From Malacoraja senta (taxonomy: Eukaryota): 64,000 nucleotides of DNA. The notes beneath the pieces were generated by a model, which saw only the letters and a list, made by a program, of their open reading frames with translations, ran no database searches and was not told where the DNA came from. Both the position numbers and the translations under genes were made by a program. The stretch covers positions 6,884,001-6,948,000 of the forward strand of contig CM075994.1 of NCBI GenBank assembly GCA_038087875.1, written 5' to 3'. Of this stretch, positions 27,758 through 64,000 are shown in pieces. Each line of letters opens with the position of its first letter. The stretch's first letter is position 1.

Positions 27758-29311
27758 CTATAATACACAACAACGAACTCACTGAGAGAATTACACTGAG
27801 TGTTCACACAGTCTCACTTTTTAACAGTACATTTAATACGGCAAAACATACAATGCAGAACAGTATTGTTAACATATGATGAGTGTTTGACGGCACTGGG
27901 CCTCGACTCACTAAAGTTTAGAAGGATGAGGGGGAACGTCATAGAAACTTACCGAATAGTGAAAAGCCTGGATAGAATGGATTTGGAGAGGATGTTTCCA
28001 TGAGTGGGAGAGTCTAGGACCAGAGGTCATAGCCTCAGAATTAAAGGATGTTCCTTTCGGAAGATGAGGAGGAATTTCTTTTGCCAGAGGGTGGTGAATC
28101 TGTGGAATTCTTTGCCACAGAAGGCTGTCGAGGCCAAGTCAACGGATATTTTTAGGGCAGAGATAGATAGATTCTTAAATAGTACGGGTGTCAGGGGTTA
28201 TGGGGAGAAGGCAGGAGAATGGGGTTAGGAGGGAGAGATAGATCAGCCATGATTGAATGGCAGAGTAGACGATGGGCTGAATGGCCTAATTCTACTCTAC
28301 CTTACTGATTATTCTACCCTACTGGTTATGGTTATGGTGTTGGAAGGAACCAAAGTTCTTGGAGAAAACCCACGTGGTCAGCGGTTATCAGGCAGCTAAA
28401 TCATTCTAGCACAACCAGAGAGCAGTCCTGAACTACTATCTACCTCATTGGTGTCCCTCGGACTACCCTTGATCAGACTTTGCTGGCTTTACCTTGCACT
28501 ATACGTTATTCCCTTATCATGTATCTATACACGGTAAATGGCTTGATTGTAATCATGTATTGTGATTCCGCTGATAGCAGCAACAAAATCTTTTCACTGT
28601 ACCTCGGTACACGTGACAATAAACTAAACTAAAACGAAACATTTAAAAAATACTCAGTTCTCTCATATTTTGGTCCAAGGCAATTGACATAATATTTGAT
28701 GCGAAAAAAACCATTTCAGTCTTGACAACTTGCATCACCTTTTCATCTCTCTTTAGGATGTAATTGCAGTTCACCCTGTTACTATACCACCCACCTTTGC
28801 ACTGTAGGTGAATTTGATGAAGTGACTCTATCTAATCACTCAAGTTGGCCTACGAGAAGCTACAGCCCCAATATAGATATTTGAAGAAGGGTCTCGACCC
28901 GAAACGTCACCCATTACTTCTTTCCAGCAATGCAGCCTGTCCCGCTGAGTTACTCCAGCTTTTTGTGTCTACCATAGATCTTTGTAGGACACCATTAATC
29001 AGTCTGACGACTTGTATCTTGCAAGTTATTCCTATATGCTGCTTCCTGTCATGGAAGCACCAATAATCCATTATCATAACCTTCCATTTCATAAGTTTTA
29101 ACTTACAAAGGACTTTATCTAATACCCTCTAGAAGTCCAGATGTCCAACTAGTCATCCATTATTGACTATATTGGGTCTCACAATGCAGGTGCAGGTAAT
29201 TCAGGCAACATAGATTACAATGTACTGACTGAGATACTCCATTCATTCCAACCATCTGATACAGTACCAAGTTTCCAATTTCATGAAAATAAAGAAAATG
29301 TGTGCACATAC

Positions 29312-29404
29312 CTTTAAATGCAATCCAGCAAATGGAAGCAATGAGGATGGTAACAAGAGACACAATGTGGCAGATATTCAGGCGCCACCACCACCATTTG
29401 TCCT
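29312..29404 (-). CDS. Gene B TM exon, type A copy 3 (EDKWWWWRLNICHIVSLVTILIASICWIAFK)
   Basis: Acceptor tttctctccaccgactccag, donor AG|gtatgt. 93 nt, phase 1-1. Flanks are homologous to those of the 54934 and 63274 exons. Confidence 0.8.
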
Positions 29405-29554
29405 CTGGAGTCGGTGGAGAGAAATGAACAAAATTAAAATAGTTTGAAAAAACGAAATAGTAGATTGACACAAATGATTCAATGCATGCAATAACAAACA
29501 AAGTTTGGAGACACAAGACACCATGAGCCTGAAAGTCGAGCAAAATTGTGAAGT

Positions 29555-30860
29555 TCTGGCGACATCCTTGTAATTCTTCCCTGCACCCTTTCCAGTTTGG
29601 CAACATCTTTCTGATGACATGTTGCCCAGAACTAAACACACAATACTCTAAACACAGCCTCACCAACGTCTTATATAACTGCACATGACCTCCCAACTGC
29701 TATATTCGATACTCTGATTGATGAAGGCCAATGTGCCAAAAGCCTTTTTGGCTACCCTAGCTACCTGTGACCCCACTTTCAAGGAACCATGCACCTGCAC
29801 TCCTAGATCCCTCTGCTCCACAACACTCCTCAGAGCCCTACCATTCACTGTGTCGGTCGCTGCCCATGTTAATCTTCCCAAAATGCAACGCCTCACATTT
29901 CTCTGTATTACATTTCATCAACCATTCCTCAGCCCACCTGCTCAATAGATCAAGATCCTGCTGCAATTTTTGACAACCATGTTCACTGTCTGCAATACTA
30001 CCCACTTTTGTGTCATCTGCAAACTTGCTAATCTTGCCATGTCATTGATACAGACGACAAACAGTAACGGGCCCAGCGCTGAACCTTGAGGCACGCTATT
30101 AGTCACAGGCCTCCAGTCCATGAAGCAATCTTGCACCAATCACTCTCTGCTTCCTTCCATGAAGCCACTTTTGTATACATTTAGCCATCTCTCCTTGCAT
30201 CCCATGTGACCTTCCAGAGCAGCCAACTATGTTGAACCTTATCGAATGCCTTGCTGAAATCCAGATGTACAACATCTGCAACTCTGCCCTCATCAACCTT
30301 TATGGTCACATCTTCAAAAAACAATCAGATTTGTGAGATTAGACCTCCCACGTACAAAACCATGCTGTCCCTAATCGGTATTTGTCAGTCTAAATGCATG
30401 TATATGTTATCCCTCAGAAAACCCTCTACTAGCTTTCCGACCACAGATGTCAGGCTCACTGGCCTGCAGTTCCCAAGCTTTTCCCTGCAGCCCTTCATGA
30501 ATAGAAGCACATTTGCCACCCTCCAGTCTTCCGGCACTTCACTGGCATTTAATGACAACTCATAAATCTCACCCTCGGCTCCTGCAATTTCCTCTCTAGT
30601 TTCCCAGTGTCCTCGGGTATATCTGATCAGGCCCGGGAGATTTGTCTACCTTCCTACTCGTCAGGACTTTCAGCACCTCTTCGGCCGTAATATTGACTGC
30701 GCTCAAGACACTTCCATCGGCTGCCCCAAGTTCCCCAGTCCCACTGACTTTCTCCCTGGTAAAACCAGAGGAGAAATACTTGCTGAGGACCTTGCCCATC
30801 TCCTGTGGCTCCACACAGAGTTGACCACTTTGATTCCTGAGAGGCCACATTCTCTCATGT
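29555..30860 (-). mobile_element. Degenerate CR1 ORF2 fragment
   Basis: Frameshifted segments DKSPGPDQIYPR, VPQGSALGPLLF and LYKTLVR. Confidence 0.8.
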
Positions 30861-31084
30861 GGTACTGCCTCAAAAAGGCAGGTACCATCATCAAAGACCT
30901 ACACGATACTGGCCATGGTCTCACGTCACTCCGACCATCAGGAACAATGGAAAACTGTGACCATATGGTTCAAGAATAACTCTTCAAATCAACCATCAGG
31001 CTCTTGAACATGACACAGCACTAACCAATGAACTATGGACTGTCGTGGGTTGCACTAATGACTTCAGCATTTTTTTTCCACTAG

Positions 31085-32750
31085 TATTCCAAATCTACAA
31101 TTTGAGAGGGAGAAGGGAGAATCGGAAATGTCAGTATTGAACAAAGGGGGTTATGGAGCCATGAGGGAGGAGCTGGCCAAAGTTGACTGGAAAGATACCC
31201 TAGCAGGGATGACAACGGAACAACAATTGCAGGTATTTCTGGGAATAATACAGAAGGTGCAGGATCAGTTCATTCCAAAGACGAAGAAAGATTCCAAAGG
31301 GAGTAAGAGGCGACCGTGGCTGACAAGGGAAGTCCAGGGCAGTATAAAAATAAAAGGGAAGAAGTACAACATAGCAAAGATGAGCGGGAAGCCAGAGTAA
31401 TGGGGAACTTTTAAAGAGGGACAGAAGATAACTAAAAAGGCAATATGGGGGGGGGGGGGGGGGGAGATTAGGTATGAAGGAAAGCTAGCTGAGAATATAA
31501 AGGAGGATAGTAAAAGCTTCTTTAGGTATGTGAAGAGGAAAAAATGAATTAAGACCAAAGTTGGACCCTTGAAGATTGAAACAGGTGAATTTATTTTGGG
31601 GAACAAGGAAGTGCCAGACAAGTTGAACAGGTGTTTTGGATCCGTCTTCACTAAGGAAGACACAAACAATCTCCCTGATGTACTAGTGGCCAAAGGATGA
31701 TGGAGGAAATTCACATTAGGCAGGAAATGGTGTTGGGTAGATTGACGGGACTAAAGGCTGATAAATCCCCAGAGCCTGGTCTGCATACCAGGGTATTTAA
31801 GACAGTGGCTCTAGAAATCTTGGACACATTGGTGATCATTTTCCAATATTCTATAGATTCAGGATCTGTTCATATGGATTGGAGGGTAGCTAATGTTATC
31901 CCACTTTTTAAGAACTTGGACAGGTTGGGTGAGTGGTCAGATGCAAGGCAAATGCAGTTTAATGTGGATTAATGTGAGGTTATCCACTTTGGTGACAAAA
32001 ACAGGAAGAGATTATTATCTGAATGGTGTCATGTTGGGAATAGGGGAAGTACAACGAGATCTGGGGGTCCTTGTACATCAGTCACTGAAAGTAAGCATGC
32101 TGGTACAGCAGGGAGTGAAGAAAGCTAATGGCATTTTGGCCTTCATAACAAGAAAAGTTGAGTATAGGAGCAAAGAGGTCCTTCTGCAGCTGTACAGGGC
32201 CCTAGTGAGACCACACCAGGAGTATTGTGTGCAGTTTTGGTCTCTGAATTTGAGGAAGGACATTCTTGCTATTGAGGGAGTGCAGCATAGGTTCACACGG
32301 TTAATTCCCGGGATGGCAGGACTATCATATGTTGACAGAATGGAGCGGCTGGGCTTGTATGCTCTGGAATTTGGGATGAGAGGGGATCTTATTGAAACAT
32401 ATAAGATTATTAAGGGATTGGACATGGTGGAGGCAGGAAACCTGTTCCCGATGTTCGGGGAGTCCAGAACCAGGGGCCACAGTTCAAAAATAAGGGGTAG
32501 GCCATTTAGAACGGAGATGAGGAAGACTGTTTCACCCAGAGAGTTGTGAATTTGTGGAATTCTCTGCCTCAGAAGGCAGTGGAGGCCAATTCTCTGGATG
32601 CTTTCAAGATAGTGTTAAAGATAGCAGTCAGGGGATATGGCGAGAGGGCAGGAACGGGATACTGATTGTGGATGATCTGCCATGATCATATTGAATGGTG
32701 CTGCTTGCTCGAAGGGCTAAATGGCCTACTCCTGCACCTTTGGACTATTG
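31085..32750 (+). mobile_element. CR1 copy with a large internal deletion
   Basis: Jumps from WRVANVIPLFK directly to LDRLGEW at about 31912, omitting the RT core that is present in the 39583 copy. Confidence 0.8.
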
Positions 32751-33956
32751 TATTAGAGTTAATAATTTATTGAAATTTTAGTTTATTATGTATTTTCTAT
32801 GTCCATGATGTTACAGGCTTATTATGCTGCTGCATGCAAGAATTTCATTGTTGGTATATATATGACAATTAAACATTCTTGACTCGAGTCATCTGTGCCA
32901 TTACCTGTGACTCGGTAACAAATTTTATGTTATAATTTAGTCTCGACCCAAAATGTCACCCATTCCTTCTATCCAGAGATGCTGCCTGTTCCGCTGAGTT
33001 ACTTCAGCATTTTGTGTCTAACCTGTTATGCAGCGTGGGTCACTTTATTATACAAATGATGGTAGTTGTAACTATTGCCACTATTCTTGAACAACAAACT
33101 GTCTTTGGGAAAGGTGCTATTGAAGGGAAATAAAACTGGAATAATTTGAGCGGAATTGTCACCATCCCCAAACACTGGCCAGTAGTTAAGGAAGAACTTT
33201 GATGCAGCACAGTGGCGCTGCGATAGAGTTGCTGCCTTACAGAGCCAGAGTCCTGGGTTCGTTCCTGACGACGGGTGCTTGTTTTTTCGGAGTTTGTAAG
33301 TTCTCCCCGTGACTTGCTTGGGTTTTCTCTGAGGACTTCAGTTTCTTCCCACATTTCAAAGATGTACAGGTTTGTAGGTAAATTGGCATGGTATCAATGT
33401 AAAAATTGTCCCCAGTGTAGGATAGTGTTAATGTGTGGGGATCGCAGGTGGGTACAGACCTAGTGGGCCGAAGGGGCTATTTCCCCGCCATATCTCTAAA
33501 CTAAACTAAACTGAATACTTCCATGCATCCACAGTCAGGTGTGAGTGCGGACAGCCTGCACGTTCAGCCTTACGCTGTGGTGGAGTAGGGTGTGCAACCA
33601 GATCCAGGGCTTCCTACCCAACCAGATCGAGGGCTTCCTTGGCTCTAAATTGACTTCCACGATGCGTCAATCATGAATGAATTCAGAGGCTCTTCTCAAG
33701 GTCACTTGTCCACTAGTGACCTTGCTGGAGTCAGGCCAGAATACTTCCTGATGTTCTGTGTCATTCCGAGGCACCACAACTGGGCAAAATGTGGGGTCAT
33801 TGCATTCCACAAGTTACAGGAGCTGTTGGTGAGTTGGAGGGATAGGTGTCGGGAGGAGTTAATAGGTCATGTTTTGCTCTTTTGCTTTGCTAATGCTAAT
33901 CACTTGGAAATGCCTGCGAGTTAATGCTTAAGTGCAAATTAGACAATATCAGATAC

Positions 33957-34064
33957 CTGGGAACTCCTTAAATGTCCAGCAGAGAAACATAATGGCATAT
34001 GTTAGAGAAAGTACCAGTCCCACCATCGATGCAGCAGCAATTATAACGTCCTCTATTGTAAGGC
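33957..34064 (-). CDS. Gene B TM exon, type B copy 2 (GLTIEDVIIAAASMVGLVLSLTYAIMFLCWTFKEFP)
   Basis: Acceptor ttctctttaattgcag, donor AG|gtatct. 108 nt, phase 1-1. Same length as, and homologous flanks to, 60730-60837. Confidence 0.8.
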
Positions 34065-34189
34065 CTGCAATTAAAGAGAAGTTTGAATAACAAAATATGA
34101 ACCCAAATGAAGATCATTATAGTTACAGTTTAGTTTATTGTCATGTGTACTGAGGCACAGTGAAAAGCTTTCATTGCGTGCTATCCATC

Positions 34190-35530
34190 GGTTATTGAAG
34201 ATGTTATAGCAGCGCATTCATAAATCAGTGACAGGATCGGTCAAAGTCAGCTTGGATTTATGAAGTGGAAATCATACTTGACTAATCTTGAATTTTTTGT
34301 GGATATAACAAATAGAATGGATAAGGGAGAGCCTGTGAATGTGGTGTATCTAGACTTTCAAAAAGTCTTTGACAAGGTCCCACACAAGAGATTAGCGTGC
34401 AAAATTAGAGCACATGGTATTGGGGGTGGGGTATTGACATGGATAGAGAACTAGGTGTCAGACAGGAAGCAAATAGTAGGAATTAACAGGTCCTTTTCAG
34501 AATGGCAGGCAGCGACTAGTGGGGTGCCGCAAGGCTCGGTGCTGGGACCCGTTATTTACAATAGATATTAACGATTTAGACGAGGGAAATAAATGTGACA
34601 TATCCAAGTTTGAGGATGACAAAAATGCTGGGTGGCAGTGTGAGCTGCGAGGAGGATGTTATGAGGCTGCAGGGGGACTTGGATAGGTTCGGTAAGTGGG
34701 CAGATGCATGTCAGATGCAGTATAATGTGGATAAATGTGAGGTTATCCAATTTGGTGGCAAGAACAGGAATGCAGATTATCTGAATTGTGTCAGATTAGG
34801 AAAAGGGGCGGTGCAACGAGACCTGGGCGTGCTTGTTCATCAGTCACTGAAAGTAAGCATTCAGCCACAGCAGGCAGTGAAGAAAGCTAATGGCATGTTG
34901 GCCTTCATTGTGAGAGGATTTGAGTTTAGGAGCAAGGAGGTCCTACTGCAGTTGTACAGGGCCCTGGTGAGACCGCACCTCGAGTATTGTGTGCAATTTT
35001 GGTCTCCTAATTTGAGGAAGGACATTATTGCTATTGAGGAAGTGCAGCATAGGTTCACCAGGTTAATTCCCGGGATGGCAGGGCTGATATATGATGAAAG
35101 AATGGGTCGGCTGGGCTTGTCGTTACTGGAATTTAGAAGGATGAGAGGATATCTTATAGAAACATATACAATTCTGAAAAGATTGGACAGCAGGACAATG
35201 TTTCCCCATGTTAGGGGGGGAGAGAAGTCCAGAACCAGGGGTCACATTTCAAGAATAAGGGTAGGTCATTTCGGACTGAGATGAAGAAAAACGTTTTCAC
35301 CCAGATAGTTGTGAATCTGTGGAACTCTCTGCCACAGAAGACAGTGGAGGCCAATTCATTGGATGTTTTCAAGAGTTAGATTTAGCTAATAGGGCTAAAG
35401 GAATCAAGTGATATGGGCAAAAAGCAGGAACAGGGTGCTGATTTTAGATGATCAGCCTTGATCATATTGGAAGGCTGGCTCGAAGAGCCGAATGACCTAC
35501 TCCTGCAATTATTTTTCTATGTTTCTATCC
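34190..35530 (+). mobile_element. CR1 RT fragment with 3' UTR
   Basis: YLDFQKVFDKVPH and [15 protein letters not shown], with stops and frameshifts. Confidence 0.85.
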
Positions 35531-37039
35531 AGTCAGTGGAAAGACAATACATGATTAGACATCGAGTAATTTACAGTGTATAGGGAATAATGTTTAGTGC
35601 AAGATAAAGCTAGCAAAGTCCGATCAAGTCCGAGGTTCACCAATGTGGTAAATACCAGCTACCTGATATCAGCTGGGAAGAAACTGTCCCTGAATCTGGA
35701 GGTGTGCATTTTTACACCAGTACTTTTTGTTGATGGGAGAGGGGAGAAGAGGGAGTGGCCAGGGTGCGACATGTCATTCATTGTGTTGCTGGCCTTGCCG
35801 AGGCAGCGTGAGTCAATGCCTGTTAGCTGCCTGTCTTATCGCCTCAACGCAGAGGGAGAACAAGGAGGGAAGAGGCAAAGACTTAAGATTTTTGCCTTCC
35901 ATGACAGTGAGGAGGTGTCTGGTGAACTCACTGTGGTGGATGTTAAATTTGTGTTTATTGTGTGTTTTGTTATTTTATTGTATGTATGACTGCAAGGCAA
36001 CGGAATTTCGTTCAGACCAAAAGGTCTGAATGACAATAAAGTTTCCAAGATCCAAGATTCCAGAAGGTGGAAACGAACAAAACCTGTCAAATGCCATGAA
36101 AGGGTCTGCAGTGAATTTCTCCATTGAAAATCAGAAATCTGCTATTTCACTGCACCTTTCACCACCCAAGAAGTATTTTAAATGCAGTCACAATTGGAGA
36201 GAACCAGTTTGCACTGAGCTGGGCTGAACATTCATTAATGTGACACAAACCAAACAAGCTGCATTATGGATTCGAGCTTCATATTTTGTATTCCCTTATA
36301 ACATAGGTGGCCATTCAGCCCAATGACTCCATCCGAGATCCCCTCCCTCCTTTCCCTGTATCTAATTATCTCGCATATGCCCATTAATTCTCCTGCCGTT
36401 CACCTACAGGTGTAGATAATTTGTAAAGCCAATTAATCCACCAACTCACATCATGACTCTGGGATGTCGGAGGAAATCGGAGAACCAGGGAAACACCCAT
36501 GCGGTCATGAGGGGAACATTGAACCTCTGAACAGACAGCACTGAAGATCAGAATGGAACAATGTCTACTGCATCAGTCAGACAGCTGCACTAGTTGTGGT
36601 GACACTGTGCTGTCCTATATTCTCAGATATGGTGGCATAAGTTTATTAGTGATAGGAGCAGAATTAAGCCATTCGACCCAACGTCTACACCGCCATTCAA
36701 TCTCGGCTGATCTATCTCTCCCTCCTAACACCACTCTACTGCCTTCTCCCCATAACCTCTGTACTAATCAAGAATCTATCAATCTCTGCCGTAAAAATAT
36801 CCATTGACCTGGCCTCCACAGCCTTCTGAATTCCAGATTCACAACCCTCTGACTAAAGAAATTCCTCCTCATCTCCTTCCTAAAGGCACGTCCTTTAATT
36901 CTGAGGCAATGACATTTAGTCCTAGACTCCCACACTAGTTGAAACATCCTCTCCACACAGAGCCGGATTTAGATGAAGAGAGGCCTTAAGCTGTTTCACT
37001 TGTGAGGGCCCCCCCTCCCAATCCCCCACCCCCACGACT

Positions 37040-38200: not shown

Positions 38201-38745
38201 GCTCCTTCGCATGGAAGAACGGTGTGAGGCGGAGGCGATGGAAGAAGAGCTCCAAATCGCGGTGGGCGTGGAACTCATTGAGGTGGGGACGGAGGGGGAC
38301 AAAGGTGAGGCCTCTGCTGAGGACAGACCGTTCGATACCTGAGGTCAGGGGCGATGGTGAACACACGGCAGGGATGGTGGTTGGGGCCGGAGGAAGGCTG
38401 GTGAGTGGACTGAGGCTGTGGCCGTCTGGTGGTAGGGTGGAGGGTGGTCAGGGGGTAGGGGGGTATGAGGAATGTAGTGTGGGTGGGGAAGAGCTGGGGT
38501 CACATGGTTTGAGGGGAATGTGGAAGACCCAATGGAACAGCCACTGAGGTTACCAGGGTGAGGGGGGACTAGCACTAGGATCAAGCGGTCAAACTCAGGG
38601 GAGTTGGAGTCTGCAGCGTGGAAACTTCAGGCCCGGTGCTGAGTCCAGGCTGCAGGTAAGGTGATGGCTGCGGGCTGCTGGAGTGGTCAGGGTCAGCGGG
38701 CAAAGAATAGGAGGTCCTCTCCACAACGAATATAAACCTCACCTG
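38200..38745 (-). mobile_element. Penelope-like element N-terminal ORF remnant
   Basis: [13 protein letters not shown]...[13 protein letters not shown] resembles the segment preceding the Penelope RT. Confidence 0.65.
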
Positions 38746-43433: not shown

Positions 43434-46387
43434 TTTTACTTCAGAGTCACGTGAGTGACTACGTGAAGACCCCGCCAGCACGCATGCGTGTCATATCGTC
43501 TATCGCATTGTGTACGACTGGCGGGGGGGCATGATGCTCCTGCCAGCTGTCAGACCTGAAGGTAAGTTTTTTAAACTTTTTCCAGGTTATGTCTTCTTGC
43601 AGGAACCTCTACTTAGAGGTCCTGCTAAAGTCAGGGGCGAAGTCCGGATGGAAGGGAGAGCCCCAGTCACGGACTACAGGGAATCCCGGTCACGACCTCG
43701 GGGAATCCCGCCCATGGACCAAGGGAACCCGCTTGGAAGACCGCGGAATGCGGGTAGCGGGCGGCGGGGAATTCGCCTTTCGAGCCGCTGGCGGTGGAGC
43801 CAGCGGCTTCATACTTGTGCCGGTGGCACCTGGACAAACACAGCGGGGATACCCCCCGACTATGTGTATCGCGGCTATCCCTTTTATAGGGACCGCGGGG
43901 ATATCCCAGCTGCAGTTACTGCGGGGGCGGAAGCCCCGACTGTAAACATCGCAGAGAAGCCCTTCTATAAGGGACCGCGGTGGAAATGCCGGCTATAGCT
44001 ACAATGGGAATACCAAGCTCGGGGGAGAAAAACCCGATAATGAACGTCGCGGAGAAGCCCTTCTACAAGGACCGCGAGGGAATCCCGGCTGCAACGACTA
44101 CGGGAATATCAAGCTCGGGGGAGAAAAACCCGACTATGAATATCGCGGGGAATCCTTCTACAGGGACCACGAGACCAAGCTCGGGGGGGGGGGGGGGGGG
44201 GGAGCGTTGCCCCTGCAGCGGAAGGTTGAAAACAGGACCTGCAGGTAAATTCTTTACTCTAAGGTCGTTTTGTTCTATTTTCTGTCAGAATTGTGTTACA
44301 GGAAAGGAACCATGGACTAAGTCCAAATGGACCACATCCAGACTGACTGCGGAGGACCACAGAAGTGCGGGCAATCAGCAGCGGTCGGCTGCACCTGGAT
44401 CGCTATTCGATCAGCAGTCTCCGACCTGGCACCTGCACAGTCCGAATCGACACCACAGACTGGCGGGAAGGCCAAGCAGAAGTCGGACAGGCCCGAAGGC
44501 TCAGACGAGTCGGGCTGTGAACACTCACCGTCGGCGGGCAGCGACTGTGATCGCATATCCCGCATGGAGCGGTTGATGGAGCAGATGCTCCAACGTGACA
44601 TGGAGTCTAGTCACCATGGGGTCCTAGGACGCCCATGGCAGCACCTTATAGAGGCTGCATAATGCATCTCCCTCGACAGAGGGGAGCATTAGGAGTCACT
44701 TCTGGGCTGACTCTGAAGACAGGGGTTTGGCTGAAGATACCACAAGTGTGCTGGGGGTGCAGGAACAACACAACCAGCAGCAGGAGCAGGCTGTGAATGA
44801 CAACTACCAAATACCCAGCACCAGGGAACTGTGTTTCTCTCAGTGTCCCTGCGGTGAACAGCTATCTGGGGACCCCAAATTTACAGGACTGTGTAAGACC
44901 AGTAACACACAACCACTGATACTGCCATTTGGGGGCAACCTTTTGAAACAGGTCAAGAAGCTCGACGAGGGCCGTCGGGCTCATGAAGGCCACATCATCA
45001 GGCAAGACCTCACATCTCCGGCGGCAGCACCCCTACGCACCCACCAGCAAACCACGATACACTGAAGTTGGTGAAAGCTTGAAGGCCGTACAACTAGGAC
45101 AAAGGTCTTTTTCAGGCCACGGCCCAGAACGGCCTTCCTGGAAGATGCGCCAACCCCGTACTCGAGCTCCTCTACCTCCCAGGAGCAGAAGGTGCAAAAA
45201 TCATGTTATCCCAAACCTGTGTAAATATTCATGCACACATGGTTGAGGCAGCTCTTGGGTCGGGTTGCATAAGTCCTCCCATTCGGATGTGGAAGGATGA
45301 AGCTGATTGAGGCAACTCCTGGAAGTTCCCCATCCGGCGGTGTGAAGGTATGGAGCCACATCGATGATGCCTCCTGTCACGGATACAAGTTGGTAATATT
45401 TACACTGGTTTGAATATTTACACAGGTTTGGGATAACATGAGATTAGTTTATACTGCACAGCAGGTATGGTTGGAGTTGCCTTTCAAGGCAGGCTCGCAA
45501 TTATGGGAGATGTGGACTGTTCATTGTCAACAGCTTCAACCCGCATGTGCAGTATAGACATTTCTGAATAACTTCCATGTGATCATTTCCGCTCACAGGC
45601 TTCGGAGATATTGGAAAATTAGCTGGATGAGGCAAGGATACACTCAGAAGCATTGCAAAATGGGCTAACTTCAGCTTCCAGGTTATTTACCAAATCACTA
45701 CAATCAGTGCTTCGACAGGGCTCGAAATTAGAGGTTGCCCGGGTGCCACTGACCACTCAAAGCGCCGCCGGGCAACCTAAACACCGATTCATTTTGCCCG
45801 GCTTGGCAACCAGATACTGGTTTGTACCGAAGATAGACACAAAAAACTGGAGTAACTCCGCGGGTCAGGCAGCATCTCTGGAGAAAAGGAACGCGATGTT
45901 TTGTGTCGACGGTGACGGCTGTATTGCGGCGCAAAGATACTGGGTGCAGGGTGAGGAAGGGTCGGAGCGAATGACGGGCTTCGCACAGCAGCAGCAGCGG
46001 CCGCGACAGCGGCTCCATTTCCTCCTCCTCCCGCCCCCTGCCCGCCCTGATAAGGGCGGGCAGGGTGCGGGAGGTAACTCCGAAGTAAAATAGTAAGATT
46101 AAACGAGAACTTACCAGTTTGAAGTTTGATCTTTATTTTATGAGGAGTAACGTTGAGGGATTACGTTCCCTCCACGCCCACCCTCTATCATAAAGGTCAA
46201 CTGGTATTCTAGTTTCTCTTATCTTACTATGTTTATTTCAATAACTGTTGTCTGTGATTTCACACCGCTGCTTTGAAGATTGACATGCATGCGTGCTGGA
46301 GGGGTCTTCACGTAATCCCTCAACGTTAATCCTCATAAAATAAAGATCAAACTTCAAACTGGTAGTTCTCGTTTAATCTTACTATTT
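43434..46387 (+). mobile_element. Internally deleted DIRS1-type tyrosine-recombinase retrotransposon
   Basis: Inverted terminal repeats at 43461-43493 and 46281-46313. An internal complementary region at 46074-46166 is complementary to both termini. RT remnant NGLTSASRLFTK at about 45655-45695. TTT termini and no TSD. Confidence 0.8.
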
Positions 46388-46389
46388 AT

Positions 46390-51900: not shown

Positions 51901-51944
51901 TGATCTGCTTTTTATCCCGACTATGTATGCCATGTCGTGTCTAA

Positions 51945-52169
51945 AGGGCCTGTCCCACTTGGCTGTCATTTGCGTGTCACGCAGATGGCGCTCGAAGATT
52001 TTGTACATCAGAAAATCCTGCGACGCCACACGCGGCCGTGCGTCACTGCCTTTGTCATCACGCATCATGCGCGTGTAATGCGCACCATGTGCGCATCACA
52101 TGCGTGCCATGACGCATAAATGATGTTGCGTAAATTACGTGCAAATGATGGCCAAGTGGGACAGGCCCT
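51945..52169. mobile_element. PIF/Harbinger-like MITE
   Basis: TIRs AGGGCCTGTCCCACTTGGC / GCCAAGTGGGACAGGCCCT flanked by TAA on both sides. Confidence 0.85.
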
Positions 52170-52174
52170 TAACT

Positions 52175-53985: not shown

Positions 53986-54933
53986 TTTATTCAAATCAAC
54001 CTGCTGAAATTTTACAGCCCTCATCACACTCCTTCCAGGACACCATCAGTCACATTCTGTCAGCTGCAGCTCCTGTAAGCGATCTCAATGTTCTGTTGAA
54101 GATAGACACAAAATGCCGGAGTAACTCCAGTGGGTCGTACAGCATCTCTGGAGAAAAGGAATAGGTGACGTTTCGGGTTGAGACCCTTCTTCGGATGGCC
54201 ACAGAATTAATTATCTATTCACGTCAACAATAGGGCGGCACAGTGGCGCGGCGGTAAAGTTGCTGCCTCACCGCGCCAGGCACCCAGGTTTGATCCTGAC
54301 TATGGGTGCAGTCTGTACAGAGATCGTACCTTCTCCTTGTGACTGTGTGTGTTTTCTCCAGGTGCTTCGGTTTCTTGCCACACTCCAGAGATGTACAAGT
54401 TTGTAGGTTAATTGGCTTCCATAAAATTGTAAATTGTCCCTAGTGTTTTGGATAGTGGTAGTGTATGGGGTTGATCACTGGTTGGTGTGGACTCGATTGG
54501 CCGAGGGCCTGCTGCCGTGCTGTATCTCTAAAAGTCTAACACAAATATCCTTTCAATTCCATGGGCAAGTGCTGATGGAACAGGTCATGCAAGTACACAA
54601 TATACTGACTCGGATTCTCATTCTATTCCAATCACCCTGCTGAATACAGAGTACATTATTTTTATATAAATACAGAATAATAATCGTTTCTATACTCACC
54701 TGGATAATCCGGAAAGCACTGCGAGTCATGTTTTTTTACTTCACCAATGCTTTTAACACCATCCAGCCTGCACTGTTAGGGAGCAAACTGAAGAAGATGC
54801 AGGTGGATGCTCCACTGGTGTCCTGGATCACCAACAACATGACTGAACGACGGCAGTAGGTCAAGCTGCAGAACTGTCTCTCGGACATGGTAGTTGCATC
54901 GTATCGTATTGTATTGTATATTTTAGCACATAC

Positions 54934-55035
54934 CTGTTGACGCCATCCAGGAAGTGATTGCGATGACGTTGAAAATGAACAAAATGAACAAAATAACTTC
55001 AGCGATAGACAGCCATCGTCTGTATCTTGGATATG
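54934..55035 (-). CDS. Gene B TM exon, type A copy 2 (AYPRYRRWLSIAEVILFILFIFNVIAITSWMAST)
   Basis: Acceptor ttcttgttttcatttctctaaag, donor AG|gtatgt. 102 nt, phase 1-1. Confidence 0.8.
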
Positions 55036-55751
55036 CTTTAGAGAAATGAAAACAAGAACAGTTGAAGTCCATTGCAACAGATTTTACACAAATAATTGAA
55101 TTCATGCATCAATGTTTATGGTGTTTCAAGCAACTGGTTTGTCATGCTGCTAGCGATATTGTGTCCAATCAGCTCAGAAATACATCAGATACTAGGCCAT
55201 ATCTGCAGATCTAACTCGTACAGGCACCCATAGGAAAGCCAAAATTTACCCGTCACCGTCATTCACCTTACTTAATCTCTTACTTTCTCTTTATAAATGA
55301 CTAATGCCCTTCTCACAACTTACTTTCCTACTTAATTTTGCGACAAATTTAACAATCACACCTTTGGAATCTTTATCACATTTTCCTCAACAGTGTGGAC
55401 AATGATACGAACATTGAATGGCGGTGCTGGCTCGAAGGGCCGAATGGCCTACTCCTGCACCTATTGTCTACTTACTGGAGCAGAAGAATGAGGGGGGACC
55501 TCATAGAAACGTATTAAATAGTGGAAGGCCTGGATATGGAGAGTCTAGGTCACAGCCTCAGAATTAAAGGGTGTTCGTTTAGGAAGGAGATGAGGAGCAA
55601 TTTCTTTAGTCAGAGGGTGGTGACTCTGTGGAATTCATTGCCACAGACAGTTGTGGAGGTCAAGTCAATGGATATTTTTAAGGCAGGTAGATAGATTCTT
55701 GATTAGTGTGGGTCTCAGGGGAGAAGGCAGGAGAACGGGGTGAGGTGGGAG

Positions 55752-56273
55752 CAGTGCTTCCACACCTCAACATTTTTTCCCCGAAATAGACTCCAAATTT
55801 CCTGGAATTTTTTGGTATTTCCTGAAATTTAAGCCTTCCCCAACTGCGCATGTGCGACTGCCGACCCAACTGCGCACGCTAGGATACCGGGCCCACTGCG
55901 CACGCACAAGGAGATGGCTTCCCAACTGCAAATGTGCAATTGCCGCCCTAACTGCGCACGCGCAAAGAGACGGCGTTATTTTGCGTCCCTACTGCGTCAC
56001 CGGCACCATTTTCAATTGTGCGCGGCTGACGGGCCTGCCTTAACTGTGCAGGGGCGGATGGTCGGAAAATTTCCCCCCCCAAATCCCTTCGCTTCTCCCT
56101 GCGTGTGCGCAGTGGCCCGGGTATCCACGCGTGCGCATTTGGGGCGGCAGTCGTACATGCACAGTTGGGGAAGGCTTACCAGGCCAGGGAATTTCCTGAA
56201 ATTATTTAATTTCCCTAAAATTACCCGAAGACAACCAGAATTTCCGGTAATTTCCTTCAAAGTGGAAACACTG
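55752..56273. mobile_element. hAT-like palindromic MITE inserted in a CR1 3' UTR
   Basis: TIRs CAGTGCTTCCAC / GTGGAAACACTG. Flanks GGTGGGAG / GGTGGGGG (7 of 8 match). Long internal inverted arms rich in TGCGCA. Confidence 0.75.
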
Positions 56274-56519
56274 GGTGGGGGAGATAGATGAGCCATGATC
56301 GAATGGTGGAATAGACTTGATAGGCCGAGTGGCCTAATTCTGCTCCTATCAATTAAGCTGTCATAATATATTATTCATAAGTTCTTATGAAGAGTCCTTG
56401 GCAACGTGACATCTTAACAACCAGTAAAAAAAACTGTCTGTTTTCCATTTCCTCTTGGTCAGCCATTCTTCTGCCTGTACTAATGCGTGACCATTTTCAC
56501 ACAATGTTTTATTTCCACA

Positions 56520-57135
56520 ATAAGCATGCAGGTACAGCAGGCAGTGGAGAAAGCGAATGGCATGTTGGCCTTCATAACAAAAGGAGTTGAGTATAGGAGC
56601 AAAGAGGTCCTTCTGCAGTTGTACAGAGCCCTAGTGAGACCACACCTGGAGTATTGTGTGCAGTTTTGGTCTCCAAATTTGAGGAAGGACATTCTTGCTA
56701 TTGAGGGAGTGCAGCGTAGGTTCACACGGTTAATTCCTGGGATGGCAGGACTGTCATATGCTGAGAGAATGGAGCGGCTGGGCTTTTATACGCTGGAATT
56801 TAGAAGGATGAGAGGATATCTTATTGAAACATATAAGGTTATTAAGGGTTCGGACCCGCTAGAGGCAGGAAACATGTTCCTGATGTTGGGGGAGTCCAAA
56901 ACCAGGGGCCAAAGTTTAAGAATAAGGGGTAAGCCATTTAGAACGGAGATGAGGAAACACTGTTTCACACAGAGAGTTAAGGCGGCGGAGGCCGGTTCTC
57001 TGCATACTTTCAAGAGAGAGCTAGATAGGGCTCTTGAAGATATGGGGTGGACGGGGTAATGATTGTGGATGATCAGTTATGGCAGTTATGGTTTGAAGGG
57101 CCGAGTGGCCTACTCCTGCACCTATTGTCTATTGT
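56520..57135 (+). mobile_element. CR1 3' fragment
   Basis: ORF 56487..57059 with [19 protein letters not shown]. Confidence 0.85.
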
Positions 57136-58028
57136 CCATAACATTGGATGTGGCAGCTTATCAAATATACAATACATTCACTGCTTCCCCTTTATCCATA
57201 CTACATTATTTCTTCAAATGACATCAAGAAATTGGTCAAACACATTTCCCCTTTCTCAAAATCACGTTGTCTTTGCCTTTGACCTTGAATGTTTATAGAC
57301 ATTGTCGTAATATCGTTAATAATAGATTCTAACATCTTCCTCATTACAGACATTATGCCAATGGTTTGTTGTTTCGTGTTTTCTGACACCTGCCCTCTCA
57401 GAATAAAAATGTTACGTGCTATTTTTCAATCCAATGGAACCCTCCCTGAATTGCAAGAGTGTTTGAAAATGAAAAACAATATATCAGTTCTATGACTAAT
57501 CATTACTAAATCCCGAGGATAAAGTCTTTCTGGGCCCAGGGACTTGTCAGACCAGAGCTCCAACAATTTTCTCATTGGCTCTTCTCTGGCAATTGTAATT
57601 TTCCGGCCTGCACTGTAATGCTCAGATAACAACTCAATGCACACATTTGTGCATTCAGAATTACGTTATACTTACTTATGGGACATAGAACAGTACTGCA
57701 TAAGAACAGGCCCTTTGGCCCACCATGTCTGTGCCAAACATGTTGCCAAGACCAATTCTTAACTGCCTGCACATAATCCATATCCTGCCTTTCTCAGCAT
57801 ATCCATATGCCTATCCAAAAGTCTCTTAAATGCCACTGTCTTTACTACCTCAAGCAACCCCCCCCCTTCCCCTCCCCAGCAACAACAAATTCCAGGCATT
57901 CACCACCCTCTACGTCAAATTTTGCTGTTAACAATAACTGATTCAAATATCCAAGAGGGATGGCTACCAGGACAAAGAAATTCCCTCCCCATATTCATCT
58001 CTATCAGTAATGCAGGAAGCTCTATTAC

Positions 58029-59946
58029 CGTGTGCGGACGTGGCGCCGATGGACGAGAGGCGGAAGCAAAGATGTCAAAGCCAAAGAACGGAATGGAAAC
58101 GAGGCCAAAACGACAATAAACCGAAGGAGACCAAAGACGAGACGCCTACTAACCGAAAAGATGGGACGCCTAAATGCAAACTAACCGAACGGGCGGGACG
58201 CCTGAAACCCAAGGAACCGAAAAGCTGCGTCGCCTAAAAGCAAACTTACCGAATGGCCGCTCTGTCGAAACGCCACCTACCCGAAAGGCGGCGTCGCCTA
58301 CAGGCCAAAGGACCAACTGCCACTCAACAGAAAAGTCCAATAACGGGCTTGACATTGCCGGGGGGCGGGACTTGTCAGCGATTGGCCCAGACCACGTGTC
58401 CATCACATCACTGTGAAGGCGTGAACATTGTCCCAAACCTCCCCCGACTCGCAGCCCGCGGAGGGTGGCCGTGGGAGAGTGGGGGCTGTCCCGAGCGATG
58501 CACACCTTCGGCCGCATTCAACTTGGTGCTTGGGTTCAGATTGCCCAGTTATCTATGGCTTGTGTGGGAAAATGAACCCCACGCTCCCGTCTCCCCCTTC
58601 TCTCTCTCTCTCCTCTCTCTCCCCTCTTCTCTCTCTTCCCTCTTCTCTCTCTCCATTCTTCTCTCTCTATACTCTTCTCTCTCTCTCCTGCTCTCTCTTC
58701 CCCTCCTCCCCCTCTCTCTCCCTTCTCTCTCTCCACTTCTCTCTCTCCCTTCTCTCTCCCCCTCTTCTCACCCCTCTTCTCTCTCCTCCTTTCTCTTCAC
58801 TCTTCTCTATCTCCTCTTCTCTCATCGCCTCCTCTACCCCCTCTCTCTCTCCCTTCTCTCTCTCTCCCCATTCTCTCTCCCTCCTCTCTCTCCCCCTCCC
58901 TCTCTCTCCCTTCTCTCTCTCTCCTCCGTCTCCACCCGCGGGTGCGTCCCAGTCATTGACCGCGATGCACCGCCATCTGACCCCAACCTCCACACCAGCA
59001 TGATTTCCCCTCCCTCCCTCTGACCGCAGTCAGTGACTGCAGGACGCTCCCACAGGTGGAGACGGAGGAGAGAAAGAAGGGGGAGAGAAGGGGAGAGAGA
59101 GAAGGGAGAAAGATTGGAAGAGAGAGAGAAGAGAGAGAAGAGGGGTGAGAGAGGAGGAGAGAGAGAAGGGAGAGAGAGAAATGGGGAGAGAGAGAAGAGG
59201 GGATGGGGAGAGAGAGATAAGGGAGGGAGATAGAAGGGAGAGAGAGGGGGAGAGGAGGGAAAGAGAGGAGAAGAGAGAGAAGTGGAGAGAGAGGAGGCGA
59301 GAGAGAAGAGGGGGAGAGAAGGGAGAGAGAGAAGGGAGAGAGAGAGTGGGAGAGAGAGTGGGAGAGAGAGAAGAGGGGAGAGAGAAGGGGAGACGGGAGC
59401 ATGGGGTTCATTTTCCCACTCGCCATAGGTACCGGGGCAATCTGAACCCACGCACCAAGTTGAAAGCGGCCGAAGGTGTACAACCCCCACTCTCCCACGG
59501 CCACCCTCCGCGGGCTGTGGGTCGGGTGGAGTGGAGGTGTGGGACAATGTTCATGCCTTCACAGTGATGTGATGGACGCGGGGGTCTGGACCAATCGCTG
59601 ACGAGGCCCGCCCCCCGGCAACGTCAAGTCCGTTATTGGACTTTTCTGTTGAGCGGCAGTCGGTCCTTTGGCCTGTAGGCGACGCCGCCTTTCGGGTAGG
59701 TGGCGTTTCGACAGAGCGGCCATTCAGTAAGTTTGCTTTTAAGCGACGCAGCTTTTCGGTTCCTTGGGTTTCAGGCGTCCCGCCCTTTCGGTTAGTTTGC
59801 ATTTAGGCGTCCCATCTTTTTGGTTAGTAGCCGTTTCGTCTTCGGACTCTTTCGGTTTATTGGCGTTTTGACCTAGTTTCCATTCCGTTCTTTGGCTTCG
59901 ACTTCTTTGCTTCGGCTTCTTGTCTGTCGGCCCCACGTCCGGGTAC
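58029..59946. mobile_element. 1.9-kb foldback element with 9-bp TSD (Mutator-like, non-autonomous)
   Basis: The two roughly 900-bp arms are reverse complements, including a CT-rich versus GA-rich block. CTCTATTAC occurs at 58020-58028 and 59947-59955. Short ACCGAA/GACGCC subrepeats are present. Confidence 0.8.
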
Positions 59947-60357
59947 CTCTATTACATCCTCTCCTTCATCAGAATTCAGTTCAGCTTGGTTTATTGTCAC
60001 ATGTACCGAGGTACCGTGAAAAGCCTTTGTTGTGTGCTATCCAGTCAGCAAAGACAATATATGATTACTATCAAGCCATTTACAGTGAATAGATACATGA
60101 TAAGGTAATAACGTTTAGTGCAATGTAAAGCCAGTAATGCCCGATCAAGGATAGTCTGAGGTTCACCAACGAGGTAGATAGTAGTTCAGCACTGCTCTCT
60201 GGTTGTGAAAGGGTGATTCAGTTGCCTAATAACAGTTAGGAAGATACTGTCTCTGAATCTGGAGGTGTGCGTTTTCACACTTCTATACCTTTTGCCTGAT
60301 GGGAGAGGGGAGAAGAGGGAGTGGGCAAATGAGATGCATTGTTCTCTAATTTCTCAC

Positions 60358-60384
60358 CTCTATGCCAAATCACAGCACATTTGG
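60358..60384 (-). CDS. Gene B 27-nt microexon (AKCAVIWHR)
   Basis: Strong acceptor ttttttcatgtttcatatttcttcag, donor AG|gtgaga. Phase 1-1. Confidence 0.6.
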
Positions 60385-60729
60385 CTGAAGAAATATGAAA
60401 CATGAAAAAAAACCTCCCATTTCTCAAGGCTATTTTCCTAAAGACTCCTCGAGTCAGGTCAGCAGTGCCTCCACAATTGTTCCAGATATCCTGTACCACC
60501 TCACAACTGACCAAAAATGCACTGACACCATCCCATAGGTCACAGCAACATGGAAGGGTGGCTATGGATGGACTGATGTCCTCTGACTCTGTGAGGTGGA
60601 GGGATGGAGGTGTGTGGAGTGGTTAGGGAGTTCATTGGTCATGTTTTCCTCATTTTTTATTTTATTAAAGCTAATCATTTGGAGATGTCTGCTTATTTAT
60701 GCGCATGTAAATTAGACCAGAAAAGATAC

Positions 60730-60837
60730 CTGATAATCTTGTACAATTCTGCAGGAGGATCAATATGGCACATGCTGCAGGAAATGGCAGTCCTATAATA
60801 ATTGCAGCACCAATTATTGTGTTATCTGTTATAAGAC
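60730..60837 (-). CDS. Gene B TM exon, type B copy 1 (GLITDNTIIGAAIIIGLPFPAACAILILLQNCTRLS)
   Basis: Acceptor tatttttaattgcag, donor AG|gtatct. 108 nt, phase 1-1, paralogous to 33957-34064. Confidence 0.8.
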
Positions 60838-61348
60838 CTGCAATTAAAAATAGGTTTTAATAATTAAATCTGAAACCAAATCAGGATCATTAGCTGTCTC
60901 CCATTTAAAGGGCATTGTTTACCTAAACTGATACCCACAACACCCATCAATTGCTGTGAAAGGGTCTGCAGTGAATTGTCCCATTGAGTAACAGTGCTAT
61001 TTCACCACATCTTTCACCCCCGAAGCCCAGGAACAGGCCCCAACCAGAACAACCCATTCATCCTAGTAATTAGCTTAATGAACTGCTTTTCAACCCCCTC
61101 CAATGCTACCAAATACATCCTCCACTGAGGGGATTAAAATTGTGCATGTTACCTCAGGTTTGGCTCACCAACACCCTGTATAATTATAATAGATCCTTAT
61201 TTCTGAACGACAACTCCTTTGCAATAAAAGCCAAAATGTTTTAATAGATCCAAAGGGATTGACCTAATTTGTGCCAGAATTGAAATCTGTTTGCAAGCAT
61301 TTTTTTCTAATTGTACCATGTAGCATTATTATTTGCGACACAACTTAC

Positions 61349-61369
61349 CATTCACACTGTTTATATCAA
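61349..61369 (-). CDS. Gene B candidate 21-nt microexon (VDINSVN)
   Basis: Consensus donor G|gtaagt and a weak acceptor (aaagatag). Phase 1-1 preserves the frame. Confidence 0.4.
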
Positions 61370-61499
61370 CTATCTTTGTGTTACGGAAATTATAGTTACA
61401 GACTTTTTAAATTCAGATTACTTGAATCAATTTGGCAAAATATTCGAGCAGAAATTCAATTTCCTGAAGGATACCGTCAAATCACGTCAACTTATCCTA

Positions 61500-62500
61500 T
61501 GATATCCGAAGGAGTTAGTGGTGGACTTTAGGAGGAGAGGAACACCCCTGGCCCCATCAATGGTGTGGAGGTGCAGTTTACCAGGGAGTACAAGTACCTT
61601 GCAGTTCACCTCGACAGTAAACTGAACTGGTCCAGGAATGCTGAGGCACCGTACAAGAAGGGACAGAGAACATCTGTACTTTCTGAGAAGGCTCCGCTCT
61701 CTCAATGTCCGTAGTAAGATGCTGCAGATGTTCTACCAATCAGTGGTGGCTAGTGCCATCTTCTTTGCTCTTGTGTCCTGGCATAGCAGGGCAACAGAAT
61801 TCACAAGCTCATTTGGAAGGCTGACTCTGTCCTGGGGCGGTGTTGGATACATGGGAGGTGGGCTTGGAGGGGAGGATGCTCCACAAACTGCGGAGCTTCC
61901 TGGACAATAACAGCTCATCCCCTCCATGGCACACCTGTGGAGCACCTTCAGCAACAGACTGGTTCCACCAAAATGCAGCACAGAATGCCACAGGTGATTC
62001 TTTTTCTGTTGTGGTCATCAAACTGTACAACTACTCCCCTTCTCCCCCTTCTGTCGTGGGGTAGACTGACTCCTCTTGTTGTTCTGGCACTATTCCATTA
62101 GATTATCAATCTCCCTCCTAAACGCCGATTTATCACTCTTCATAATTTGTCCAACAACTGTGGTGTCATTGGCGAGTTTAAAGATGACGTTGGAACTGTG
62201 TGTGGATACACAGTCATGGGTATAGAGTGAGCAGATCAGGGAACTGAGTCTACAACCTTGAGGTGATCCTGTGCTGATGGTTATCAAGGCGGAAGAGCCA
62301 ATTTCAGCTGATTGTGGTCTGTTGATGAGGAGGTTGAGGATCCAATTGCAAAGGGATGTACAGATATGCAATTCCCTGAGCTTGATAATGTTGAGAGTGG
62401 ATAATGATGCTGAATGCTGATCTGTAGTTGATGAATGGCCTGACGTACACATTCTTATTGTCCAAGTGGTCTAATGCAGGGTGGAGAGCCAGTGCCATCC
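61500..62500. mobile_element. Two Rex1/Babar-like LINE fragments (61500-62070 plus; 62090-62500 minus)
   Basis: HLYFLRRLRSLNVRSKMLQMFYQ on plus; [24 protein letters not shown] on minus. Confidence 0.75.
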
Positions 62501-63273
62501 CATCCCCTCTGGCAGTAGGTAAATTGTAGCGGGACCAGACTCTTCCTAAGTTTGATATGTGCCACAACCAACCATATGTTAAACACAAATTAATTGAGAC
62601 ATCCTCCTCTGAAAGCCACTTCTCCAAAAGTCCCTTTGGAGTTAGGTCAGACATGACTCCAGAATTGTTCCTGGAGTGATGCATCACTGCGGAGCATCCA
62701 CTTTGCAATTTGACACAAATGTAGGGCAATTTCATCCCACAGTAGAGTCATACAGCATGGAAACAGGCCCTTAGATCTAACTCATTCATGCCGCCCAAGA
62801 TACAAGTCCCATTGGACTGTGCTTAGCTCATATCCCTCTAAACCTTTCCTATCCTTGTACCTGTCCAAACAACTTAGAAATATTGTTATTGAATCTGCCT
62901 CAACTACCACTTCTGGCAGCTCGTTCTAGAAAACCTTCCATCCTGTGTGAAAAAGTTGCCCCTCGGGTTCCTGTTAAATCTTTCCCCTCTCAATTTAAAC
63001 ATATGCCCTAGAGCTCTGTTTGGAGTTTGTTCCTAAATATACAGTAGACAATAACAGAAGTAATGCACAAGTCGACCAAGAACACAGGGTAATAACACCA
63101 GCCATTAAAGTTTAAACATCCTTTAGGTTTCCCTGCTGTATGTTGTGGGCTATTGTTCAAAGAACTGTGGGTGCTGGCGATCCGGGTGAAGCTCACAATA
63201 CTCTGACTGACATACACCACTCCAGTCACCCTTCATCATTTTCATATGTTCAGAATAATATTTGTACACATAC

Positions 63274-63366
63274 CAAAACTGACGAAATAGATAACCGTGC
63301 AGAAAATCCACATGCACACAACCATATCACCAAAGATTAGCAGGATCTTCAAAAGGATTTTCATTC
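63274..63366 (-). CDS. Gene B TM exon, type A copy 1 (MKILLKILLIFGDMVVCMWIFCTVIYFVSF)
   Basis: Acceptor tttttgcttttctggaacatttcaag, donor G|gtatgt. 93 nt, phase 1-1. The flank AAAATTAAAATAGTTTGAAA is shared with the 29312-29404 exon. Confidence 0.75.
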
Positions 63367-64000
63367 CTTGAAATGTTCCAGAAAAGCAAAAAATTAAAAT
63401 AGTTTGAAATCCATAATAACAGATACGTACAAATCATTTCACAATAGCATCATGAGACAAATGTTCCAAGTAGCAGAAGTGAGCTCAGGATTGGTCAGGT
63501 TAGTAGCAATAATGAGTTTCCAAAACAAACCAAACAGTTTTGAAACAGGGCAGATGTCAGAGCACTGGACTGAAAGGACATCAGAAACTAAACTCACACT
63601 GGCCGTGTGGAAAGCCCAGGGAGAAACAAAAGGCACCTTGTGCACATTCTCCCTGTAACTGCTCGGGTGCTTCGATTTCCTCCCACATCCCAGACATGCA
63701 GTTTGAGGGTTAATTGGCCCTCTGCAAATTGTTCCTAGTGTGTCGGGTGTGGATGCAAAAGTAGGATAACATAGAACTAAAGTGAATGGGTAATCAATGG
63801 TTGGTGTGCAGTCGGTGGGCTGAAGGATGTATTTCCACAGTGTATCTTTCAATCAAACAGTTCATTGCGCCATCACTGGTGGATGTACTTTCAGCAACCT
63901 CAGCCCAAGGCTCTGAATTTCCCACCCGAGACTCTCCATTTTGTACCCCTCCTTTAAAGCTCAACTCCTATGGTCATCTCACCCTTTATTGCTTTCTTTG

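Follow-up and report, generated by a model that had tools for sequence, protein, structure and literature searches.

How does a protein that crosses the membrane many times gain its helices? Changes in helix number by internal duplication are usually inferred from the symmetry of the protein, long after the trace in the DNA has gone. Here we analysed a 64,000-nucleotide stretch of the genome of the skate Malacoraja senta (GCA_038087875.1, contig CM075994.1, positions 6,884,001 to 6,948,000; hereafter the window), whose minus strand carries the 3′ part of a gene with repeated helix-encoding exons and whose introns still record the duplications. A sequence-only reading of the window had ascribed these exons to a fairly recent tandem triplication of a two-helix cassette. 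The best overall explanation of our results is that the gene probably encodes an immunoglobulin (Ig) superfamily surface protein of about nine predicted helices, grown by old duplications of helix hairpins; since its relatives span 5 to 12 helix units, the steps of this growth and their order are testable.

All gene coordinates are window positions, and only the 3′ part of the gene lies inside the window. The five exons recognised by the sequence-only reading are real: A1 (63274-63366, 93 nt), B1 (60730-60837, 108 nt), A2 (54934-55035, 102 nt), B2 (33957-34064, 108 nt) and A3 (29312-29404, 93 nt). To these a splice scan and reading added exon E (27659-27757, 99 nt), which encodes the last outside loop, with a conserved cysteine, and the last helix, and two tail exons, the first at 25664-25710 (47 nt, phase 1-0) and the second at 25132-25218, which carries the stop codon and is followed by a 3′ untranslated region (UTR) extending to at least ~24760. 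Each of the eight is bounded by AG..GT. The six helix exons are of phase 1-1, the repeated ones being symmetric (same phase at both ends), and one open frame of 245 codons runs through all eight exons, with its only stop at the end. A1 and A2 encode predicted in-to-out helices, the former hydrophobic with a basic N-terminal side, and B1 a predicted out-to-in helix, while B2 and A3 encode the conserved B and A helices, respectively. The window model is identical to P0001 (Amblyraja) at 179 of 209 positions, to a Leucoraja protein at 142/181 and to P0005 (Rhinoraja) at 161/226. Exon by exon, 15 of 37 residues of A1 are shared with P0005, and 31/33 of A3, 26/32 of E and 12/15 of the first tail exon with P0001. 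We are therefore dealing, almost certainly, with the 3′ part of a single skate gene that has one predicted helix per phase-1 exon.

The paralogy of the exon copies extends beyond their coding part. In a self-comparison of the window the near flanks of B1 and B2 align (60591-60892 with 33829-34119, E 9e-33), as does a far block (60937-61025 with 36077-36170, E 1e-12), in agreement with the sequence-only reading; each block has two copies in the window, where two-copy matches are few and repeats many. The B1 module thus spans 60591-61025 and the B2 module 33829-36170, the latter with about 1.9 kb of interspersed repeats between its near and far blocks that is absent from B1. Scored on intron sequence only, against 200 shuffles, the B1-B2 likeness reaches z values of 18.7 upstream, 25.6 downstream and 32.3 in the far block, with 80% identity (52 of 255 aligned positions differ). 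The A exons also share their surroundings. Their donors at 63274, 54934 and 29312 all read G|gtatgtg, and a 20-mer upstream of two of them occurs exactly twice in the window, at 63390 and 29430. Of the motif proposed downstream of them, the core holds (ACAAT, three bases, CTGACT, at 63195, 54597 and 29217), but the whole motif has no literal match. The upstream flanks give z values of 5.4-8.6 in all three A pairs; downstream the value is 7.6 for A1-A3, and 7.1 and 9.2 for the A2 pairs when a displaced block (54546-54700) is used, the shared motif in the intron downstream of A2 (54546-54933) having been shifted by an insertion of ~220 nt (54701-54919). The three A pairs match at 142, 140 and 129 of 235 gap-free columns (55-60%), in no consistent order; this percentage and that of the B flanks come from different alignment methods, with z scores that agree in direction. 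The repeats in the intron upstream of B2 and in that downstream of A2 were inserted after the duplication. A and B flanks are unrelated to each other (z at most 2.4, as for all pairs with E), and we therefore rejected a derivation of A and B from one recent exon. A third copy of the B-downstream block (62476-62762; z 11.9 and 20.9) lies in the A1-B1 intron with no B exon; it may mark the place of a B exon since lost, or be an old repeat of low copy number.

Are these exons joined in one transcript? We aligned contigs of four public runs from relatives (X1, X2, X4 and X10, from two studies) to 54860-55400 and 24700-34300. In the first region, apart from a 35-base repeat match at its edge, cover was confined to A2 in three of the four runs (X4, X1 and X2, limited to 54933/4-55037), and the contigs of X10 gave no cover on A2. 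Compared by eye, the loose ends of the contigs match the 3′ end of B1 at 27/30 (X1), 27/30 (X2) and 23/30 (X4) positions, and the 5′ start of B2 in two of the four runs, at 28/30 (X4) and 27/30 (X1). B1, A2 and B2 are thus spliced into one transcript in these relatives, and since both the B1-A2 and the A2-B2 joins are present they belong to one gene and are not fragments of paralogues. In one contig 573 letters precede A2. This exceeds the combined length of A1 and B1 by about 370, and the gene therefore continues past window position 64000. At the other end, contigs of X1, X4 and X10 begin at the acceptor of the second tail exon (25217), with 193, 248 and 67 upstream letters, respectively, that fit elsewhere. 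Support for the joins A1-B1, B2-A3, A3-E and E-tail comes from annotated proteins rather than from contigs. That the flank likeness reflects a dispersed repeat family, or that the cassettes are separate paralogous genes, the two alternatives against which the sequence-only reading was to be tested, is highly improbable and, for B1-A2-B2, refuted: the window is repeat-dense, the third B-downstream copy has no exon, stingrays have many tandem paralogues and two stingray models (P0007 and P0009) look like fusions, but the B1-A2-B2 junctions are present in contigs, one open frame matches single annotated proteins, the flank blocks adjoining the exons occur only beside them in the window, and depth is 0-10 in the bins that contain A3, B2 and their flanks, against thousands or more in repeat bins.

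We then compared the helix units at the protein level, using units cut from 12 proteins and the window and scored against shuffles; 44 proteins were labelled with profiles built partly from them, so that the labels are not independent. In the five-unit relatives P0043 and P0044, helix 1 groups with B2, Bz, B0 and C, helix 2 with A3, A0 and A2, and helix 5 with E. The mean z was 7.5-8.0 for T1-B2, 8.7-10 for T2-A3, 5.5-6.1 for T2-A0, 3.8-6.4 for A2-A3 and 4.3-5.1 for T5-E, helix 1 and helix 2 of the five-unit relatives being the nearest units to B2 and A3, respectively, whereas A-versus-B cells were mostly below 2 and at most 2.9. Since helix 1 is of the B class and helix 2 of the A class, the most fitting reading of the repeat is a B helix followed by an A helix, with the last exon outside it. 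Among the 44 proteins, forms that keep the last helix or reach A3 have 5, 7, 9, 10, 11 or 12 units, and truncated models 0, 3 or 8, bearing out the expectation that helix number varies among relatives. The Mobula protein P0012 lacks exactly the A1-B1 pair of P0011. A2, B2, A3 and E have positional orthologues in stingrays, a different order from skates, and A1 and B1 are found in another skate family; the two orders split well over 100 million years ago.

These results uphold the duplication, inside one gene, of helix exons that are symmetric in phase 1, but neither its recency nor its single step. That one fairly recent triplication of an A-B cassette made all six exons is very improbable, even though it accounts for the order A-B-A-B-A, the common phase, the three related A flanks and the two related B flanks, and although copying A2-B2 would yield A1-B1-A2-B2. 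There are two B copies, not three. The sixth exon, which had been taken as B-like, is a different helix: it resembles the last helix of the five-unit relatives (z 6.7), shows no protein likeness to B units and none to the DNA of B1 or B2 (z -1.2 to 0.6). The B flanks (80%) are much closer than the A flanks (55-60%); the split of B1 and B2 therefore appears to postdate those among the A exons, contrary to what one triplication would produce. Silent divergence is far higher between A2 and A3 (0.61 of silent sites, against 0.15-0.27 for B1-B2), and A2, B2 and A3 already exist in the other order.

Stepwise, old growth by repeated duplication of a two-exon helix hairpin is, in our judgement, clearly the more probable history. 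The ancestor would have been a five-helix protein like P0043 and P0044. Its first two helices (B then A) would have been duplicated repeatedly as a pair, and its old helices 3-4 lost or replaced. Phase 1-1 symmetry would preserve the frame at each step, and the addition of helices in pairs would leave each end of the protein on its own side of the membrane, Ig domains outside and tail inside. The resemblance between B1 and B2 would mark the youngest event, a later duplication or a conversion, after which B1 may have changed fast while B2 retained the old sequence.

Several observations weigh against this account of the gene and its growth. A1 is tied to the other A units by its flanks only (protein z at most 0.3), the upstream flanks favour A1-A3 and the downstream ones A1-A2, so that flanks do not order the A duplications, and both unit trees have little resolution, with a support of 51/93 for B1 inside the B2 group. 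Stingray models with 10 or 12 units are common, and such even numbers mean either that units were not always added in pairs or that not every unit spans the membrane. A2 is missing from the Rhinoraja model, and the relatives are automatic gene models, many of them isoforms, whose counts are not independent. The contigs come from relatives through runs whose RNA status was guessed, X1 being flagged as probably DNA, and a retrocopy would give the same B1-A2-B2 joins.

What does the rest of the protein look like? A profile of the six exon peptides retrieved three proteins among 3515, and one among 1.84 billion representatives. The three are Amblyraja radiata LOC116990198, an assembly product clustered with Leucoraja erinacea LOC129715637, and Rhinoraja longicauda LOC144603200; a homologue search with B1 alone gave no matches among 163 candidates. 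Using the Rhinoraja protein as query we obtained 39 proteins among 7995 scored candidates, all named from rays (Rhinoraja, Hypanus, Mobula, Hemitrygon and Pristis). This search was limited by length and word sharing, and a 110-member chordate Atlas cluster (427 aa, score 0.96) was not inspected, so we do not claim that the family is specific to rays. These skate, stingray and sawfish relatives have the same helices, order and tail as the window gene, and are database models named 'uncharacterized' or, in their short forms, 'contactin-6-like'.

The Rhinoraja protein has a signal peptide, three cysteine-less V-set domains and a C2/I-set domain with three cysteines (V-set, I-set and Ig_3 domains in P0003 and P0005, and no cysteine between residues 23 and 348 of P0005), followed by the units B0, A0, C, A1, B1, B2, A3 and E and the same tail. 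Adding A2 to this layout, the window gene would encode a signal peptide, three V domains, one C2 domain and about nine helices, three of them beyond the window end. When translated, the intron bases immediately upstream of A1 (63367-63380) resemble the beginning of the Rhinoraja exon, and before A3, where the corresponding window stretch is 29405-29414, the Rhinoraja protein is longer by three residues. This pattern suggests acceptor sliding, in which the older acceptors were lost and in-frame ones 12 nt (A1) and ~9 nt (A3) downstream are now used. Unlike the window gene, the Amblyraja and Leucoraja models start inside B1 and carry a 13-residue insert between B1 and A2 (P0001, P0002 and P0004), possibly an alternative mini-exon, which is absent from the contigs examined. 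Neither the insert of P0001/P0002 nor the P0005 stretch standing in place of A2 had a match in the window introns (best scores of the two stretches sought, 22 and 25). In four stingray models (P0007, P0008, P0009 and P0013) V domains lie between membrane helices and are predicted inside, in either fused gene models or real exon shuffling.

Receptor_2B4 matched in four of six relatives (E 2e-7 to 2e-9), the sequence matches in the PDB include SLAMF6, CD48 and CEACAM chains, and a fold search with the full model returned Ig chains only. Pfam gave only sub-threshold matches on the eight exon peptides, the best being MtN3_slv on B2 (E 0.0015); this match and Vut_1 on P0001 and P0002 fell below the cut-off and were taken as hydrophobic chance. 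Two AlphaFold models were poor (predicted local distance difference test, pLDDT, 45.1 and 57.5; predicted template modelling score, pTM, 0.34 for the latter). With the helix model, one fold search had no match at E 0.001 and another gave generic bundles (best Z 9.6); CD47 was not listed, which excludes nothing. A true homology with CD47, in which the family diverged and its five-helix bundle grew in rays, is improbable. The five-unit relatives P0043 and P0044 would fit it, as would a weak V-set_CD47 score for P0044 (E 0.006, below the cut-off), and the spare membrane-near Ig cysteine and the cysteine of the last outside loop mirror C15-C245 of CD47, a bond that holds its Ig domain (PMC8410850). 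Against it, the CD47 membrane domain of Pfam had no match in nine relatives or eight exon peptides, and the ectodomain is of the V(n)-C2 type of CD2, SLAM and CEACAM proteins, not a single IgV.

B1 has changed faster than its surroundings. Between B1 and B2, 10 of 35 residues and 61% of bases are identical, less than the 80% of their flanks. Nei-Gojobori counts over 35 codons gave proportions of 0.43 for replacement (pN) and 0.27 for silent differences (pS), with a bootstrap value of 0.967. In a second count we omitted the final ten codons, which may hold a compensated one-base shift, and over the first 25 codons pN was 0.39 and pS 0.15 (0.994); compared with the introns (52/255), pN was higher (p=0.007) and pS no different (p=0.78). 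Replacement change has thus outpaced silent and intron change, in line with the strong amino acid divergence beside alignable introns that the sequence-only reading had noted. With each of seven stingray B2 units as outgroup, 12-15 differences are assigned to B1 and 2-3 to B2; these outgroups are related and do not amount to seven tests. In A2, 10 of 33 residues differ from Amblyraja, as opposed to 5/65 for B2 and A3 together (p=0.006); A1 pairs are saturated for such comparisons.

On these counts we lean towards positive selection on B1. Relaxed constraint, or conversion of the flanks only, is the most serious rival, and we consider it the less likely one. Swaps among hydrophobic residues can be nearly neutral, silent sites are few, the last third of the exon may hold the compensated shift, and flank conversion would explain why the B flanks look younger than the A flanks. 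However, relaxation gives pN near pS, not above it, the excess persists without the shifted part, and the silent sites of the exon match the flank divergence, so that a conversion would need to include the exon. Three results temper the case for selection. The B1 test has 21-27 silent sites, and counting alignable flanks only inflates intron identity. The base-level excess of A2 over the last exon and UTR reaches significance in one run (X1, p=0.024) and falls short of it in the other (X4, p=0.14), and A2-A3 shows no excess, with pN 0.50 below pS 0.61.

How would such a protein work? Helices A1 and A2 are preceded by basic residues, and B1, B2 and E by acidic ones, a pattern that fits a chain crossing the membrane back and forth from Ig domains outside to a tail inside. 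A spare C2 cysteine and the last-loop cysteine are both present in 24 of the 27 proteins that hold both parts, and by analogy with CD47 the two may bond. Binding of a counter-receptor would fall to the V domains, and orientation and partners within the membrane to the helix bundle, to which the C2 domain may be disulfide-tied. Tyrosine occurs in the last 42 residues of one of 29 relatives, the tail being tyrosine-free in the other 28, and such a short tail would not signal through immunoreceptor tyrosine-based inhibitory, activation or switch motifs (ITIM, ITAM, ITSM); it is from the lack of tyrosine that we infer a ligand or adhesion role rather than that of a signalling receptor. An adhesion or self-marker ligand working like CD47 or Skint1 is a tentative proposal, with chances a little short of even. 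Two findings speak against parts of this picture: the end charges fit for A1, B1 and A2 and are weak for B2, A3 and E, and three proteins without the extra C2 cysteine (one gene) still have the loop cysteine. A broader proposal, and a rather unlikely one, is that these are an undescribed family of ray immune receptors, built like CD47 with an Ig domain disulfide-tied to an evolving bundle, in which hairpins are added from 5 up to 12 helices, pairs can be skipped in splicing and new helices come under positive selection. If so, the selection would fit pathogens or partner receptors that engage the protein inside the membrane. Selection acting on a membrane helix, should the signal hold, would be unusual for Ig receptors.

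The window holds other features. On the minus strand, a V-set exon (13702-14094; Pfam E 3e-10, with TIGIT- and CD200R-like Atlas neighbours) and a phase-1 membrane-helix exon (10283-10381) form a separate downstream gene, for which a simple scan of 14095-24600 found no leader exon. We rejected this V exon as part of the helix gene, given the stop at 25132, the UTR cover and only a short DxGxY match to P0005. Also on the minus strand, a 426-codon open frame at 3566-4846 with a reverse transcriptase domain (E 3e-24), single-copy in the window, is a fairly intact piece of a long interspersed nuclear element. The B1-A2 intron contains two long TC/GA-rich tracts in opposite orientation, with inverted matches at their flanks (58138-59825). 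The A2-B2 intron contains a 96-bp tandem repeat and several near-perfect inverted pairs (43922-44173 and 45201-46387; 46088-46166 against 46310-46387, 97%), probably parts of a mobile element.

Growth by symmetric-exon duplication is a textbook mechanism, while this family and its series of helix numbers appear new to the literature; no paper on the family turned up in a search whose coverage left out most subscription journals. CD2/SLAM proteins have one or more V domains without the usual disulfide followed by a C2 domain, on a single helix or a glycosylphosphatidylinositol (GPI) anchor, with an ITSM tail in signalling members. The relatives share the V domains without a disulfide and the C2 domain, a weak likeness that is also common to CEACAMs, but the full-length ones have 5-12 helix units. 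For the Ig exons of CEACAMs, too, an increase through symmetric exons of phase 1 is described, and these proteins have one N-terminal IgV and up to six C2 domains on a GPI anchor or single pass (PMC8274849). The domain layout of the relatives differs from this architecture, and the exons duplicated here are those of membrane helices. Unlike the window gene, CD2/SLAM proteins and CEACAMs are single-pass or GPI-anchored, often with tyrosine motifs.

Skint1 and the butyrophilins form a multigene family whose proteins likewise combine Ig domains with more than one helix and a short tail, and Skint5 and Skint6 reportedly have many more helices, although our literature search did not confirm it. Skint1 itself has a disulfide-bonded IgV, an IgC and three helices (PMC4861494, PMC4382165). 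The V domains of P0005 have no cysteine, and a B7-type IgV with the canonical disulfide followed by IgC and three helices was not found; we rejected a butyrophilin or Skint identity. The helices of CD47 are encoded one per phase-1 exon, and its layout resembles that proposed for the window gene: an Ig ectodomain on a multi-helix bundle, a short tail and a last-loop cysteine that could bond a spare Ig cysteine. With a single IgV and five helices, CD47 is described as the only five-helix receptor of the immune system (PMC8410850), whereas here three V domains, a C2 domain and about nine helices (six in the window and three inferred upstream) are expected, with no sequence match to CD47. The helix model was poor (pLDDT 57.5, pTM 0.34), and its lack of a specific fold match speaks neither for nor against the five-helix fold. 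The protein may act as a surface ligand of the CD47 or Skint kind while lacking the domain and helix counts that define either family, and would stand beside them as a third kind of Ig-plus-multipass surface protein, so far listed in databases only as uncharacterised.

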